Sequence record: NC_054917.1
Source: Escherichia phage vB_EcoM_G50
Length of the DNA: 64,000 nucleotides
Direction: 5' to 3' (one strand)
The notes below the pieces were generated by a model, which was not told where the DNA came from, searched no databases, and saw only the letters and a program-made list of their open reading frames with translations. Below are positions 3,441-8,697 of the stretch, piece after piece. The stretch's first letter is position 1; each line of letters begins with the position of its first letter. A program made the position numbers and the translations under genes.

Positions 3441-3500
3441 ATAGTTGTATAGTACCACGGAAGAACAGAGATGTAAACAGTTTTGTGAAAAATTTTTTAA
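3441..3500 (-). promoter_or_regulatory. sigma70-type early promoter module (copy 1)
   Basis: Minus strand reads ttcacaaaactGTTTACatctctgttcttccgTGgTACTATAc; -35 GTTTAC and extended -10; shares flanking words with copies at 7585-7640 and 7945-8000. Confidence 0.5.
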
Positions 3501-3644
3501 AAAGTTTTAGGGAATTCTAGGGAAGGGAGGGGCAATTAAAGGATAGGATAATATATTATAAAGGGTAGAAACTAAATGATGCCTAGAGAGGTCCAGAAAG
3601 GCCTAGATGCCAAAAAGCCCTATCATTTAGATAGGGATTTAAAA

Positions 3645-4208
3645 TTATTTATCTAGTTTAGTTATTATAGCTTCTACGGCAGCTTTTAGCTTAGATGCGG
3701 TGTTAATACGATTTTTAATTTCAGTATACGCATCGCCAAGAACATCAAGGCTATCAGAATAAACACTTACACTATTGCGTTCGCTATTTGAAATAGAACC
3801 TTTAGTTTTACGATCAAAATCGGTGTACACGTCTTGAAGATCACGCGCTGCCTTCTTTGCATCATCCAATGCATCAAGAGCTTTATTCAAAGCATTAACG
3901 TATTTTTTAGTGTCGAACATATTCTTAGAAATTTTAGCAGGTGCACGTTCAGGAGTAGCTAATACAGATTTAGGAACCTGAGCGCCAGATGCCAATTTCT
4001 TAGAAATTTTGAAAAACGCTTTATTGAATTTATTTTCTTGACTCATCGTAAAAGAACTATTATCGATGTTGTACATTTCAATAGCTTTAGCTTTCCACTT
4101 AAGAAAATCGCCGCGGTCTTTTGGGTCCAAGTGGAAAAATACTTTAGTAAGATCTGCTTCAGATGGTAATTTTGCTGCTTCGGTTAAAAATTCGGCATAG
4201 GTTTTCAT
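3645..4208 (-). CDS. internal-protein-like head protein (IPIII-like, 187 aa)
   Basis: N-terminus MKTYAEFLTEA matches recalled T4 internal-protein capsid-targeting leader with L-x-E gp21 cleavage site; lysine-rich. Confidence 0.6.
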   Translation of the reverse strand: MKTYAEFLTEAAKLPSEADLTKVFFHLDPKDRGDFLKWKAKAIEMYNIDNSSFTMSQENKFNKAFFKISKKLASGAQVPKSVLATPERAPAKISKNMFDTKKYVNALNKALDALDDAKKAARDLQDVYTDFDRKTKGSISNSERNSVSVYSDSLDVLGDAYTEIKNRINTASKLKAAVEAIITKLDK

Positions 4209-4300
4209 TTAAAATCCTTGAAATAATTTATCGGTTGGTTATTAATTATTTATTACTTTGTTATTATCCGTAACAGCATTCTCTATGTGATTCAAACTAA

Positions 4301-4325
4301 AAACCCCAACCTTTCGGTCGGGGCT
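4301..4325 (-). terminator. stem-loop GCCCCGACCGAAAGGTTGGGG plus U-tract
   Basis: Hairpin directly 3' of ORF 4333..4806; near-identical copy at 4859-4885. Confidence 0.6.
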
Positions 4326-4332
4326 AAGAATG

Positions 4333-4806
4333 TTATTTGATTTGTTTAGCAGACCAAATGCGGTCTTTGATGATTTTTTGAATGTCTTCAACATACTCTA
4401 GGTCATGAGCATGTGGGTTATCTTTGAAACTATAAGCACGAGCTAGTTTTTGGCCTTCAGTTTTGATTACTAAAAGCTCTTTAAGGATAGCTTCATATTT
4501 AGCGATAATTCCTTTAACAATATTTTTTTCTTGTGCAGCTTTAGGATCTGCTTTAGGAGCAGGTTTACCCGAAGCCTTTGCAAAAGCAGCACCAGTAGCA
4601 ACTAAACTTTTCCAGGCCATACTAACCGCATTTCCTGTAAATCCTTCTGCTTTCATGTCGCGAGCAAACTGGAATCGTGATTCGTCAGAAGCATCTTTAT
4701 AGGAATATTTACCCGCTGCAATGGCTGCTTTTGCGACAGCTTGAATTTCGGTGCTAGATGCTTCATTTAACACCGCTTCATTTAAAAATTGAGCATATGA
4801 TTTCAT
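4333..4806 (-). CDS. internal-protein-like head protein (IPII-like, 157 aa)
   Basis: N-terminus MKSYAQFLNEA (capsid-targeting-like leader, L-x-E site); late promoter TATAAATA just upstream. Confidence 0.6.
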   Translation of the reverse strand: MKSYAQFLNEAVLNEASSTEIQAVAKAAIAAGKYSYKDASDESRFQFARDMKAEGFTGNAVSMAWKSLVATGAAFAKASGKPAPKADPKAAQEKNIVKGIIAKYEAILKELLVIKTEGQKLARAYSFKDNPHAHDLEYVEDIQKIIKDRIWSAKQIK

Positions 4807-4846
4807 CTTATTTCCTGTTTTAATTCGTGGATTTAATATACTACTA

Positions 4847-4854
4847 TATTTATA
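4847..4854 (-). promoter_or_regulatory. T4 late promoter TATAAATA
   Basis: Plus strand tatttata = minus-strand TATAAATA about 40 nt upstream of ORF 4333..4806. Confidence 0.6.
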
Positions 4855-4885: not shown

Positions 4886-5195
4886 AGCCTTGCGGCAACC
4901 TTGTCGGGGTTCCACCTGCTAAGGCAAGTGTTTGTACGAAACGCCGGGATTCGAACCCGGTTATTAAGCAGTTGACGCTACTTAATATTTTTAAAAGGCC
5001 ATATCTCGACCATATCCGAACGTTCCGTCAAAAACGCTACTCGGCTTACGGCAAAGATATTTCCTCGAATCGATAATTCGGTGCGCCGTTTCTGCTGTGA
5101 TGTAAGAGGGCATCAACAAATCATAAAGATTTATTAACACAATTCCTTACCCAGGGAACATCAGTCCGACGACTTACCGGTAGCGACCCGGTTTC
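4886..5195 (-). ncRNA. candidate structured stable RNA
   Basis: About 310 nt with no ORF of 60 aa or more, downstream of the tRNA operon; minus strand has a tRNA T-arm-like CCGGGTTCGAATCCCGG and several GC hairpins; ends at a terminator. Confidence 0.3.
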
Positions 5196-5546
5196 TTAAT
5201 ATTCTTTTAAAGCATCAATCTGTTCACGACGTTTACGCCATAAATCAATTGCTTCATACGCAGATTCAGCATTTCGAATTGGACGGCATTTATATAAAGA
5301 CTTGTGATTTTGATATTGCGTAGATAACGGAATTTTATCTAAAAGGTCTTTACGTTCAAAGTATTCGTAACCATCTAAGCCAAATGAACGATTTTTGAGA
5401 AATTGCCAATGACCAAATTCGTTTTGAATATAAATATAATCCGCGTGTTGATAAAGTAAATTAATTTCACGAAATGAGATATGTTTTTCATATTCATTGA
5501 AGTAAAATGTTAAATCATGAACTACTAAATAAACATTACCTTTCAT
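5196..5546 (-). CDS. hypothetical protein (116 aa)
   Basis: ORF directly 3' of tRNA-Arg on the same strand; no recognised motif. Confidence 0.45.
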   Translation of the reverse strand: MKGNVYLVVHDLTFYFNEYEKHISFREINLLYQHADYIYIQNEFGHWQFLKNRSFGLDGYEYFERKDLLDKIPLSTQYQNHKSLYKCRPIRNAESAYEAIDLWRKRREQIDALKEY

Positions 5547-5565
5547 ATTTTCCTCACTTATAATT

Positions 5566-5641
5566 GGTCGAGGCAGTAGGGATCGAACCTACGACCTAGG
5601 ACTTAGAAGGTCCTTGCTCTTCCTTCTGAGCTATGCCCCGT
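5566..5641 (-). tRNA. tRNA-Arg (UCU)
   Basis: Cloverleaf; acceptor CGGGGCA/TGCCTCG; anticodon loop CTTCTAA; T-loop GGTTCGATCC; CCA encoded. Confidence 0.85.
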
Positions 5642-5645
5642 AATT

Positions 5646-5721
5646 GGGGTGACCGATGGGAGTCGAACCCATGACTACGAGAATCACAATCTTGAGTTCT
5701 ACCAACTGAACTACGGCCACA
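5646..5721 (-). tRNA. tRNA-His (GUG), tentative
   Basis: Acceptor GTGGCCG/CGGTCAC, discriminator C, CCA encoded; anticodon loop TTGTGAT; one A-C mismatch in anticodon stem; no encoded G-1. Confidence 0.6.
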
Positions 5722-5835
5722 TTAATACCTACTCCAACAATCAAGATGTCTTCACACGAAATTAAGAGAAGAGTGATCAGTTCAACCCCGATAATCGCGT
5801 CAAGTAGATATTAATGTGACAACTGTCACAAATTT
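5722..5835 (-). ncRNA. candidate small RNA in tRNA-cluster gap
   Basis: 113-nt gap between tRNA-Asn and tRNA-His; contains palindrome GTGACAGTTGTCAC; no ORF; no folding done. Confidence 0.2.
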
Positions 5836-5910
5836 GGCGGACGTGATAGGATTCGAACCTATAACCAATCGCTTAACAGGCGATCGCTCTGCCATTGAGC
5901 TACACATCCA
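5836..5910 (-). tRNA. tRNA-Asn (GUU)
   Basis: Acceptor GGATGTG/CACGTCC; anticodon loop CTGTTAA; T-arm ATAGGTTCGAATCCTAT; CCA encoded. Confidence 0.8.
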
Positions 5911-5914
5911 AATT

Positions 5915-6001
5915 GGTGGGGAGTGATGGAGTCGAACCACCCGAGTCGCAATGACAATGGATTTACAGTCCACACCGCTACCTCTACGGGATAACTCCCC
6001 T
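5915..6001 (-). tRNA. tRNA-Tyr (GUA), long variable arm
   Basis: 87 nt; acceptor GGGGAGT/ACTCCCC; anticodon stem-loop GTGGA-CTGTAAA-TCCAT; CCA encoded. Confidence 0.8.
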
Positions 6002-6014
6002 TAATTCTTAATTT

Positions 6015-6089
6015 GGTGGCCCTGGGTGGAATTGAACCACCATCTGGCGATTATGAGTCGCTTGCTTGAACCTTCCAGCTACAGGGCCT
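6015..6089 (-). tRNA. tRNA with CAU anticodon (Ile2 or Met)
   Basis: Acceptor GGCCCTG/CAGGGCC; anticodon loop CTCATAA; T-arm GTGGTTCAATTCCAC; CCA encoded. Confidence 0.75.
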
Positions 6090-6426: not shown

Positions 6427-6513
6427 GGTGCGAGAAGTGGGACTCGAACCCACAAGGAAATCATTCCGCAGCATTTTAAGTGCTGTGCCTTTACCAATTT
6501 GACCATTCTCGCG
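6427..6513 (-). tRNA. tRNA-Leu (UAA), long variable arm
   Basis: 87 nt; acceptor GCGAGAA/TTCTCGC; anticodon stem-loop CAGCA-CTTAAAA-TGCTG; CCA encoded. Confidence 0.85.
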
Positions 6514-6514
6514 C

Positions 6515-6587
6515 TGGGAATAAAGGACTCGAACCTTTGCATCCTGGAATCAAAATCCAGTGCCTTACCAACTTGGCTAATTCCCAA
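6515..6587 (-). tRNA. tRNA-Gln (UUG), no encoded CCA
   Basis: Acceptor TGGGAAT/ATTCCCA; anticodon stem-loop CTGGA-TTTTGAT-TCCAG; 1 nt from tRNA-Leu. Confidence 0.8.
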
Positions 6588-6683
6588 TTATTAACAAAGG
6601 CTCTCAAGCAAGAACCCTTGATGATAGAGGGTATTAATCAGTGCGATATGAGTTAATAATAACAAATAATTCTTAAAGCATAT

Positions 6684-6971
6684 TTACCATTTATGATAAT
6701 ACATATTTACGATGCATTCAAGACCCAAAGGATTCTTGAAAATATCATATTCAAGAGGACCTTTTTCCGTTTCAATAAAGAAATCAAAATTTACTGTATT
6801 AAATTTACGGTCTTCCTTCACTAATTTAACTTGAGAAGATGAACGATCAATGTAAACCTTTTCAACTTCAAAACATGTTAAAATGCCATAATCATCAATC
6901 AAGGCTTTAGCTGCTTCTTGATCATATTTATATCCATTTTCAATGGATGATACTTTCGCATAAAGAATCAT
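6684..6971 (-). CDS. hypothetical protein (95 aa)
   Basis: ORF between tRNA cluster and ipI; no recognised motif. Confidence 0.5.
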   Translation of the reverse strand: MILYAKVSSIENGYKYDQEAAKALIDDYGILTCFEVEKVYIDRSSSQVKLVKEDRKFNTVNFDFFIETEKGPLEYDIFKNPLGLECIVNMYYHKW

Positions 6972-6973
6972 TA

Positions 6974-7378
6974 TTAACCTTTATCAACAATAGTATGTGT
7001 ATGGGCATTTACGATTTGCCACCAGTCAAAACTATCGCCAAATCGTTTTGATTTATTGTCTTCAATAATTTGGCGTAATTCATCTTCTGTTTCAGCATAC
7101 GCAATCAAATCATCATATCCACCGCAAGGATAGTAATTATCGCCTGCGAACAAAAGAAAATTTACTTTAGATGGGTCTACATAATAATGCTCTTTAGGAT
7201 ATTTAGTTCCTTTCCAATCAGTTACTTCAACATAACGATAAGAAAATCCATTTTTACTTTCAACCCAACTCCACGCTTCAAAAGGAGTATTAAAAACTCT
7301 ATCAGGTATTAAATTACCTTCAAAATGAGAAGGATTTGCATAATCCCCAGCATAAACATAATATTCGTTAATATTCAT
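6974..7378 (-). CDS. hypothetical protein (134 aa), Tyr/Trp-rich
   Basis: ORF tightly packed with neighbours; no recognised motif. Confidence 0.5.
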   Translation of the reverse strand: MNINEYYVYAGDYANPSHFEGNLIPDRVFNTPFEAWSWVESKNGFSYRYVEVTDWKGTKYPKEHYYVDPSKVNFLLFAGDNYYPCGGYDDLIAYAETEDELRQIIEDNKSKRFGDSFDWWQIVNAHTHTIVDKG

Positions 7379-7564
7379 TTATTCACCTTTAGAAATTTTA
7401 TCCATAACAATAGCGATTAAACCAATTAAAAATGCTACTACAAGTGAAAAAACATTTTCTGCTGTAGTCAATAATCCACATATAAATCCAACAAACATTG
7501 AAAAACTAAAAGCAGAAGCAGAAATTGCAATAGCAACATTTCGAATTAATTCACAACGTTTCAT
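7379..7564 (-). CDS. small hydrophobic membrane protein (61 aa)
   Basis: ORF with two hydrophobic stretches (VAIAISASAFSFSMFVGFICGLL, VVAFLIGLIAIV); early promoter module upstream. Confidence 0.45.
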   Translation of the reverse strand: MKRCELIRNVAIAISASAFSFSMFVGFICGLLTTAENVFSLVVAFLIGLIAIVMDKISKGE

Positions 7565-7584
7565 TTTATTCTCCTCAGTAGTTG

Positions 7585-7640
7585 ATAGGGTAATAGTATC
7601 ACAACTAAAACCCTATGTAAACAACTTTGTGAAATATTTA
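7585..7640 (-). promoter_or_regulatory. sigma70-type early promoter module (copy 2)
   Basis: Minus strand tttcacaaagttGTTTACatagggttttagttgTGaTACTATTaccctat; inverted repeat TAGGGT/ACCCTA brackets the -10. Confidence 0.5.
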
Positions 7641-7928
7641 TTACAAAAGATTTTTAGCAATAATCTTGAGATGTGCCGCAGAAATGTGTTTAGCTTTAAA
7701 CAACGCAGTTTCTTCAGCAGGAGAGATAATGATTGTAGCACCATCCTTTTTAGCAGACCACCCATCACCTAGGTAAACAGTACCTTTGATTTCTTCGCCA
7801 TCAACCAAACTAATCATTGGTTTACCTTCTCGTCCTTTATTTGCTTTAATAACTTCAGAAGTAAGAGTAGCTTCAGTAATAGTAGAAACCGGGGTAGTTG
7901 TAGAAGTAAATTCTTTGAAAGTTTTCAT
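7641..7928 (-). CDS. ipI: internal protein I (IPI) precursor
   Basis: 95-aa product MKTFKEFTSTTTPVSTITEATLTSEVIKANKGREGKPMISLVDGEEIKG... matches recalled T4 IPI. Confidence 0.85.
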   Translation of the reverse strand: MKTFKEFTSTTTPVSTITEATLTSEVIKANKGREGKPMISLVDGEEIKGTVYLGDGWSAKKDGATIIISPAEETALFKAKHISAAHLKIIAKNLL

Positions 7929-7944
7929 TTTATTTTCCTAATTA

Positions 7945-8000
7945 ATTTTGATGAGATAATAGTATCACTACCTCATCAACGTGTAAACAACTTTGTGAAA
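7945..8000 (-). promoter_or_regulatory. sigma70-type early promoter module (copy 3)
   Basis: Minus strand tttcacaaagttGTTTACacgttgatgaggtagTGaTACTATTatctcatcaa; inverted repeat TTGATGAG/CTCATCAA brackets the -10. Confidence 0.5.

Positions 8001-8697
<697 letters not shown>

Follow-up and report, generated by a model that had tools for sequence, protein, structure and literature searches.

In the present work, we focused on three small open reading frames (ORFs) lying between the tRNA genes and the internal protein gene ipI of Escherichia phage vB_EcoM_G50 (record NC_054917.1), in a stretch of 64,000 nucleotides that is hereafter called the window. These ORFs (positions 6684 to 7564) are the orthologues of the T4 genes trna.2, trna.3 and trna.4, and comparison with related phages revealed sharp boundaries around trna.3, whose alleles are swapped as a cassette while the rest of the block hardly varies. 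Our reading of this arrangement is tentative, and held with somewhat less than even confidence: judging from sequence comparisons, the trio may be an accessory host-interaction module, most likely devoted to counter-defence, acting through a mechanism that is hypothetical.

The ORF list of the window places the three ORFs on the minus strand, packed end to end between tRNA-Gln and ipI: trna.2 (6684-6971; 95 amino acids, acidic, isoelectric point (pI) 4.9; PHROG 2023), trna.3 (6974-7378; 134 amino acids, acidic, pI 4.7; PHROG 1411) and trna.4 (7379-7564; 61 amino acids, hydrophobic; PHROG 1692). A first-pass annotation of this DNA had reported ORFs of these lengths, the last one hydrophobic, and it proved exact in its coordinates as in the character of the 61-residue product, which has a grand average of hydropathy (GRAVY) of 1.22. 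The gene upstream of the trio is ipI (7641-7928; Pfam IPI_T4, E-value 2e-53), and beyond it lies 57B/Acb1 (8001-8456; Pfam Acb1, E-value 2.6e-60); both matches bear out the annotation's description of the neighbours IPI and Acb1 as anti-defence proteins. On the other side, tRNA-Gln (6513-6586) is the first of 11 tRNA genes that follow the trio on the minus strand.

At the DNA level, positions 6500-8000 match Escherichia phage REP4 (GenBank) at 100% identity and T4 at 94.8%. The encoded proteins share 97% (96.8%) of their residues with T4 Trna.2 (P13324), 85% with T4 Trna.3 (P13323) and 100% with T4 Trna.4 (P13322), and gene order, spacing and early promoter are all alike in the two phages. Moreover, each protein gave a full-length match to its PHROG family (2023, E-value 3.1e-48, residues 1-95 of 95; 1411, E-value 2.7e-50; 1692, E-value 6e-35), and homologues carry the recent precomputed Pfam assignments PF27001 (Trna.2), PF26894 (Trna.3) and PF26870 (Trna.4), accessions that are newer than the Pfam release scanned here and were read off the database homologues. 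The identity and anatomy of the trio are secure. The annotation had seen no resemblance to any nameable protein; these are, however, long-catalogued T4 orphan genes and not new ones, named trna.2, trna.3 and trna.4 in the T4 annotation and already listed as ORF2-4 in the 1980s record X03016. It was right in calling them uncharacterised, as all three belong only to PHROG families without an assigned function, and our literature search turned up no study of what trna.2, trna.3 or trna.4 does. Two differences from T4 were observed: Trna.3 has 134 residues in the window and 136 in T4, with another helix-loop module (type a, described below), and downstream the window has a T2-type tRNA cluster of 11 tRNAs that lacks segB.

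The evidence for allele swapping comes from close relatives. In a set of six Tequatrovirus genomes, no difference was seen in Trna.4 or in the 57B product (100% identity), and Trna.2 identity was 96-98%, while the identity of Trna.3 to the window copy in the other Tequatrovirus genomes is 85, 60, 51, 51 and 50%. A sliding DNA comparison located the edges of the exchanged segment: identity stays at 87% or above (mostly 93-100%) through trna.4, and falls to 30-60% exactly from the trna.3 ATG. It is then regained over the codons for NFLLFAGDNYYPxGGY, drops a second time at trna.3 codons ~88-116, returns to 83-97% from the FDWWQIVN codons and remains at 90-100% through most of trna.2. The same contrast was found in synonymous divergence (dS) between the window and phage CM8, which is 1.14 for trna.3 versus 0.10 for trna.4 and 0.23 for trna.2, and in the number of records at least 95% identical to the window, namely 30 of 762 for Trna.3, 458 of 802 for Trna.2 and 504 of 789 for Trna.4.

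At least five classes of the Trna.3 N-terminal domain were found. Class I is found in the window and in T4; class II in JS98, UP19 and AnYang, plus Tequatrovirus S2_01; class III in CM8, MLF4 and Lutter, plus Gaprivervirus UPEC07; class IV in HY126; and class V in Klebsiella phages. Phage S2_01, a Tequatrovirus, carries the Dhakavirus class of trna.3, with a nonsynonymous divergence (dN) of 0.018 and a dS of 0.63. In addition, two types of the helix-loop module were distinguished, type a (...QIIEDNKSKRFGDSF...), present in the window, and type b (...DIIKENENKPxYGSNRF...). All six pairings of N-domain classes I-III with loop types a and b were seen, which indicates a crossover zone in the conserved motif. 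Furthermore, dN/dS inside the trna.3 classes is only 0.02-0.11, even at dS values of 0.6-1.2, indicating that the alleles are old, have been constrained singly and have been moved by recombination, in some cases from one genus to another. The sequences of Trna.2 and Trna.4 do not change along with the Trna.3 allele, and the variable surfaces of Trna.3 are therefore unlikely to face either of them. No paper describing trna.3 allele swapping was found in the literature.

The block in which these alleles are exchanged is itself widely kept. Searches with tblastn retrieved 802 phage records for trna.2, 762 for trna.3 and 789 for trna.4, compared with 290 for ipI and 1484 for 57B. Homologues of the trio occur in Tequatro-, Mosig-, Dhaka-, Gapriver-, Gelderland- and Karamvirus, in Klebsiella T4-like phages and in Edwardsiella phage PEi26, with weaker ones in Erwinia phage Cronus, and the reading frames are maintained across genera at 27-60% identity. 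Gene order was compared in twelve further related loci, and trna.4 followed by trna.3 was constant in all of them except Cronus. A trna.2 gene directly follows the trna.3-type gene in the loci examined, the exceptions being Gaprivervirus UPEC07, in whose locus trna.2 was not detected, and Cronus, where a Trna.2-like ORF lies within the tRNA cluster. In JS98, PhiKpNIH-6, CM8, MLF4, HY126, Lutter and CGG4-1, trna.2 is placed after the trna.3-type gene and before the tRNAs. Tequatro-, Dhaka- and Mosig-like phages and the T4-like phages of Klebsiella agree in the order of the trio at the loci examined; in Gaprivervirus, in Gelderlandvirus, which has extra ORFs and a single-domain trna.3, and in Cronus, the set is partial or rearranged. 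What changes around the trio is the ipI slot, which holds one to four different internal-protein genes per locus, and the stretch after trna.2, where extra ORFs, HNH or GIY-YIG endonucleases and differing tRNA sets are found. A single Krischvirus, GEC-3S, was examined; its equivalent locus lacks both the trio and a tRNA cluster, and the slot is occupied by dmd. The first-pass annotation had described the locus as highly polymorphic, which does not hold for the gene content of the trio; the variable slot is that of ipI, and the polymorphic part of the trio is the trna.3 allele, not the presence of its genes.

The N-terminal domain of Trna.3 (7166..7378, minus strand; codons 1-71), the main hypervariable module, is a copy of the family domain that has diverged, and it belongs to class I. 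The C-terminal domain (6974..7165, minus strand; codons 72-134 plus stop) carries the canonical motif, NFLLFAGDNYYPxGGYxD ... FDWWQIVNAxTHTIV, and also holds the second variable module, a helix and loop (codons ~88-116; type a). The invariant columns of the family, NFLLFAGDxYYPxGG..D and FDWWQIVN..TH.IV, are present in the window protein. In an AlphaFold2 (AF2) model of Trna.3, with a predicted local distance difference test score (pLDDT) of 82, two beta-(beta)-alpha-beta-beta units can be recognised, the C-terminal one being beta-beta-alpha-beta-beta. Alignment of the two halves with hhalign gave a probability of 92% over the full length (E-value 6e-7), which argues that Trna.3 is a tandem duplication of a domain of ~60 amino acids. 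No informative fold match and no solved structure were found for this domain.

When 1.84 billion cluster representatives were searched with a profile, 502 relatives were retrieved, nearly all of them stand-alone proteins of 60-75 amino acids that match the C-terminal domain only, with the consensus YLLFAG..YYPxGG..D ... DWWQIVD..T..IV. These stand-alone relatives are borne by phages (Staphylococcus Kayvirus-type and Bacillus phages, a cyanophage and many uncultured phages), and across 185,579 bacterial and archaeal species genomes only three loci with a Trna.3-type domain were found, all in metagenome-assembled genomes. Among 20 longer members of the C-domain family that were scanned, a single fusion was observed, to an XRE-type helix-turn-helix. 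The number of Trna.3-type domain copies at the locus ranges from one to three. Most T-even genera have the fused two-domain trna.3, and Klebsiella phages add a single-domain ORF before it (locus L003, 2943-3131; locus L013, 1296-1502). The Gelderlandvirus form, as in Salmonella phage CGG4-1 (locus L014, 2111-3500), has one single-domain gene of 70 amino acids followed by trna.2, whose product is 60% identical to the Trna.2 of the window. In Erwinia phage Cronus (locus L004, 334-519 and 3447-3767), the placement differs again, the Trna.2-like ORF being found among the tRNA genes. A protein of 94 amino acids, P0084, was also noticed, in which a class III Trna.3 fragment (to ...DIIKEN) is joined to the C-terminus of the ORF type found at 4333-4806 of the window (...PHAHSLEYVEDIQKIIKDRIWSAKQIK); this fusion implies that some phage has undergone a natural deletion that took out the last part of trna.3 together with trna.2, all of the tRNA genes in the cluster and rnaC/rnaD.

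Are these ORFs genes at all? Shine-Dalgarno sequences, abutting codons, PHROG matches, dN/dS and expression in T4 together show that they are genuine genes under purifying selection. A Shine-Dalgarno sequence precedes every one of them, and their stop and start codons abut (TAA-ATG between trna.4 and trna.3; TAA-TA-ATG between trna.3 and trna.2), an arrangement that suggests translational coupling. Pairwise dN/dS among 13 phages was 0-0.47 for all three genes, and trna.4 showed a dN of 0 at a dS of 0.05-0.19 within Tequatrovirus. In time-resolved omics of T4, trna.2 and trna.3 are early in both RNA and protein, and trna.4 RNA is early, the Trna.4 protein not being detected; Trna.2 was also detected by mass spectrometry in T4-infected cells in a study on DRT1. 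The annotation had raised the scenario of ORFs that are neither conserved nor expressed, and what was found is a trio that is conserved and, in T4, expressed early; nor was a housekeeping orthologue found, the other scenario it had raised. The trio is dispensable on laboratory E. coli. In the HIDEN-SEQ transposon map of T4, insertions were recovered at 23 of 25 TA sites in trna.2, 39 of 40 in trna.3 and 16 of 17 in trna.4, which marks them as non-essential, and in CRISPRi-ART all three were scored as 'Not Fit', that is, knock-down was without fitness effect.

Searches of Pfam, NCBIfam, PADLOC and the Protein Data Bank (PDB), including profile searches of all three proteins, returned nothing significant. 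In Pfam, no match reached the cut-off for any of the trio (best E-value 0.05), while ipI and 57B matched strongly in the same search; in PADLOC, the single listed match was REase_II against Trna.3 (E-value 0.03, 12 bits). No paralogue of Trna.2 or Trna.3 was found elsewhere in the window. Trna.2 is a conserved acidic protein of 11 kDa, and the possibility that it is a distant relative of the Trna.3 domain was discarded, as hhalign gave a probability of 0.4%.

The features that led us to favour a host-interaction module are that the two soluble proteins, Trna.2 and Trna.3, are small, acidic and confined to phages, that they have no enzymatic signature and that the variable modules of Trna.3 stand beside invariant proteins, a combination that points to a binder facing outside the phage. 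Further signs of this kind are the sharp allele breaks at trna.3, the sharing of allele classes between genera and the changing number of domain copies, and the gene context, with IPI and Acb1 nearby and dmd in the Krischvirus slot, points the same way. The variable surfaces of Trna.3 would most likely face variable host factors such as defence proteins. As we picture it, the cassette would work by stoichiometric protein binding and not by catalysis. In this scheme, specificity would reside in Trna.3: variable host targets would be recognised by its N-terminal domain and its helix-loop module, whose alleles recombination at the conserved motif exchanges, and its conserved C-terminal domain would serve as a scaffold or shared contact. 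Trna.2, usually encoded just downstream, would bind as well, and DRT1 is the one candidate partner: in the 2026 DRT1 study, only Inh and Trna.2 were enriched with wild-type DRT1 over the reverse-transcriptase knockout. In its most specific form, with Trna.3 as a modular counter-defence specificity protein or a trigger evader and Trna.2 binding DRT1 as an inhibitor or trigger, the proposal appears possible but doubtful.

Known systems offer partial parallels. The internal proteins (Ip) of T-even phages are injected inhibitors of GmrSD-type restriction enzymes, and IPI, IPII, IPIII and the other Ip share with the trio the neighbourhood, the early promoter type, small size and dispensability. However, Ip diversity lies in unrelated genes that are present or missing between promoter repeats, and that of trna.3 in the alleles of one conserved gene. 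Moreover, Ip carry a capsid-targeting leader (MKT/S..EF...) that ends at a gp21 protease site (L/I-x-E). Such a leader is not present in the products of the trio, which start with MILYAKVSS, MNINEYYVY and MKRCELIRN, while that of ipI starts with MKTFKEFTSTTTPVSTITE, and the products of the trio are thus expected to be made in the cell and not injected. The diversity of ip genes among close relatives has been read as an arms race (PMC12373910). Anti-CRISPRs and anti-restriction proteins of the Ocr/Arn type resemble the trio in size, acidity, absence of enzymatic motifs and early expression, and small acidic phage inhibitors are, like the trio, restricted to phages, found solo without conserved neighbours and quick to turn over between relatives.

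Several observations weigh against a role in counter-defence. An anti-defence role is plausible; the hint of one in the annotation comes from the gene neighbourhood only. A saturated transposon library of T4 has been exposed to RexAB, RnlAB, CBASS, DarTG1 and DarTG2, and has also been grown in minimal medium; rIIA/B, dmd, 57B, adfN, tk.4 and vs were reported as hits, and no gene of the trio was among them. The adjusted p-values of the trio were 1.0 in the first comparison table of the screen, the only table checked row by row. Allele swapping is a matter of recombining old lineages and is not proof of positive selection, the dN/dS within classes being very low. In 41 IMG/VR loci of stand-alone members of the Trna.3 family, no recurrent neighbour gene was found, and these loci therefore give no functional hint. 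The AF2 model of Trna.2 was unusable (pLDDT 50.6), and the enrichment of Trna.2 with DRT1 could represent non-specific binding to a DNA-protein adduct. Lastly, in the Tevenvirinae loci examined the genes remain linked to the tRNA cluster, and the trio is missing from GEC-3S, whose locus is tRNA-less.

This linkage leads to the first alternative, namely that the trio serves the co-transcribed phage tRNAs in their maturation, modification, charging or shielding from anticodon nucleases, which we regard as quite unlikely. A T4-type early promoter on the minus strand (7593..7621; 9 of 12 matches to the consensus in a scan, plus TG), with TTTACA at -35, a 17-nt spacer and an extended -10 of TG-n-TACTAT, lies just downstream of the ipI stop codon and ~1 kb upstream of tRNA-Gln, and drives the trna.4-trna.3-trna.2 transcript. 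No terminator-like site was found between this promoter and the tRNAs; by its position, the trio is the protein-coding leader (~1 kb) with which the early tRNA transcript begins, and this shared transcript speaks for a service to the tRNAs. So does the order of trio then tRNAs in the Tequatro-, Dhaka-, Mosig-like and Klebsiella loci (in Gelderlandvirus with extra ORFs), the Trna.2-like ORF inside the Cronus tRNA cluster and the lack of the trio at the tRNA-less site of the one Krischvirus, although such a shared distribution may be mere phylogeny. No RNA-binding or enzymatic signature was found in any of the three proteins, however, and Trna.2 and Trna.3 are acidic (pI 4.7-4.9), which is unusual for RNA binders. 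The downstream tRNA sets range from 3 to more than 20 while the trio is unchanged, Trna.3 alleles swap independently of their flanks, and the space between trna.2 and the tRNAs has often taken up other ORFs and homing endonucleases. Furthermore, the 97-nt gap between the trna.2 stop codon and tRNA-Gln contains a candidate MotA-dependent middle promoter on the minus strand (6656..6680; TGCTTTA at 6680-6674, 12 nt, TATTAT at 6661-6656), which matches the T4 middle-promoter consensus and lies where the ORF cassette ends on its 3' side; if functional, it would permit transcription of the tRNAs without the ORFs.

The second alternative sets the trio in conflicts between phages, as superinfection or marker exclusion, with Trna.4 acting at the inner membrane and the Trna.3 alleles representing incompatibility groups. 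We consider it improbable. In its favour, Trna.4 is early and very small, and is predicted from its hydropathy profile (hydrophobic segments at residues ~9-33 and 37-55, K/R-rich ends) to be a two-helix membrane protein, a hairpin with both termini inside (N-in/C-in). The T4 exclusion proteins Imm and Sp are of the same general type, that is, very small, early and inner-membrane-type, although the topology of Trna.4 is a prediction only and it shares no sequence similarity with either of them. Discrete, long-lived and freely recombining alleles are also what would be expected for discrimination of self from non-self among related phages, and the region around the trio is an arena of T4/T2 marker exclusion by SegB (PMC2330249). 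Nevertheless, Trna.4 is invariant within Tequatrovirus and so cannot encode specificity, and the proteins show neither similarity to known exclusion proteins nor a nuclease or DNA-binding signature.

That the trio has no selected function, being a leader or spacer of the tRNA transcript with trna.3 diversity arising from neutral recombination or homing-endonuclease co-conversion, is barely credible: dispensability in two genome-wide screens, homing endonuclease genes (segB, HNH) near the trio in many relatives and the natural deletion implied by P0084, from mid-trna.3 across trna.2 and the tRNAs, would fit it, but it is largely refuted by selection and proteomics data, as dN/dS is far below 1 in the trio (for trna.3, 0.02-0.11 inside a class, with dS reaching 1.2), genera that share only 27-60% identity still maintain the frames, Trna.2 and Trna.3 have been seen as proteins during infection, and co-conversion from a downstream endonuclease site would hit trna.2 before trna.3, the opposite of what is seen. 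The probability left after these three alternatives and the counter-defence reading belongs to something else.

Upstream of the trio, a direct repeat of ~80 nt (7559-7635 and 7923-8001, minus strand; copies 78-84% identical) brackets ipI; each copy combines an early promoter of the T4 type with the ribosome site and the opening codons (ATGAAA), and the promoter of the trio belongs to one of the copies. Shuffling of genes by promoter cassettes has been described for T4-type phages, and the repeat looks like the cassettes proposed for that role, a likeness that fits the presence of ipI in 290 phage records versus ~790 for the flanking trna.4. The bracketing of ipI is also in keeping with an arms race among ip genes. 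A third, partial copy of the repeat was noticed at 3472-3490, and an inverted repeat across the -10 element differs by copy (ATAGGGT/ACCCTAT versus TGATGAG/CTCATCA).

Downstream of the trio, a search of Rfam over the window found only the 11 tRNAs. An 11-bp hairpin (6595-6620) lies directly 5' of tRNA-Gln, and was discarded as an unusually stable element, its stability being no better than that of shuffled sequence (z -1.2). The tRNA cluster (5196-6088 region) is of the T2 type and not of the T4 type: the T4 segment tRNA-Arg/segB/tRNA-Ile is replaced by an ORF of 116 amino acids (5196-5546; PHROG 3355), then tRNA-Arg and tRNA-His, which are followed by an unannotated gap of 114 nt (5721-5834) and by tRNA-Asn, tRNA-Tyr and a tRNA with a CAT anticodon. 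Both rnaC (4935-5073) and rnaD (5080-5196) are present. The T4 gene e.7 is absent, and the 3637-4851 segment of the window has no T4 counterpart but other ORFs instead, including one at 4333-4806 (157 amino acids; PHROG 2280, no assigned function). It should be mentioned that the 'T2L trna.1/trna.2 ORFs' of the SegB paper (PMC2330249) lie inside the T2 tRNA cluster and are not T4 trna.2; being different ORFs under a shared name, they make that paper no evidence on T4 trna.2, and the name can mislead literature searches.

Overall, the finding is an ordinary one except for the points that are worth following up, namely the allele-swapping, duplicated-domain trna.3 and the Trna.2-DRT1 lead. If the most specific form of the counter-defence reading is true, the cassette would be a third anti-defence unit beside IPI and Acb1, and T-even genera would trade the old allele classes of Trna.3 in answer to different host immune variants. 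Moreover, the Trna.3 domain is widespread in phages, and work on the trio could assign a function to three T4 orphans.

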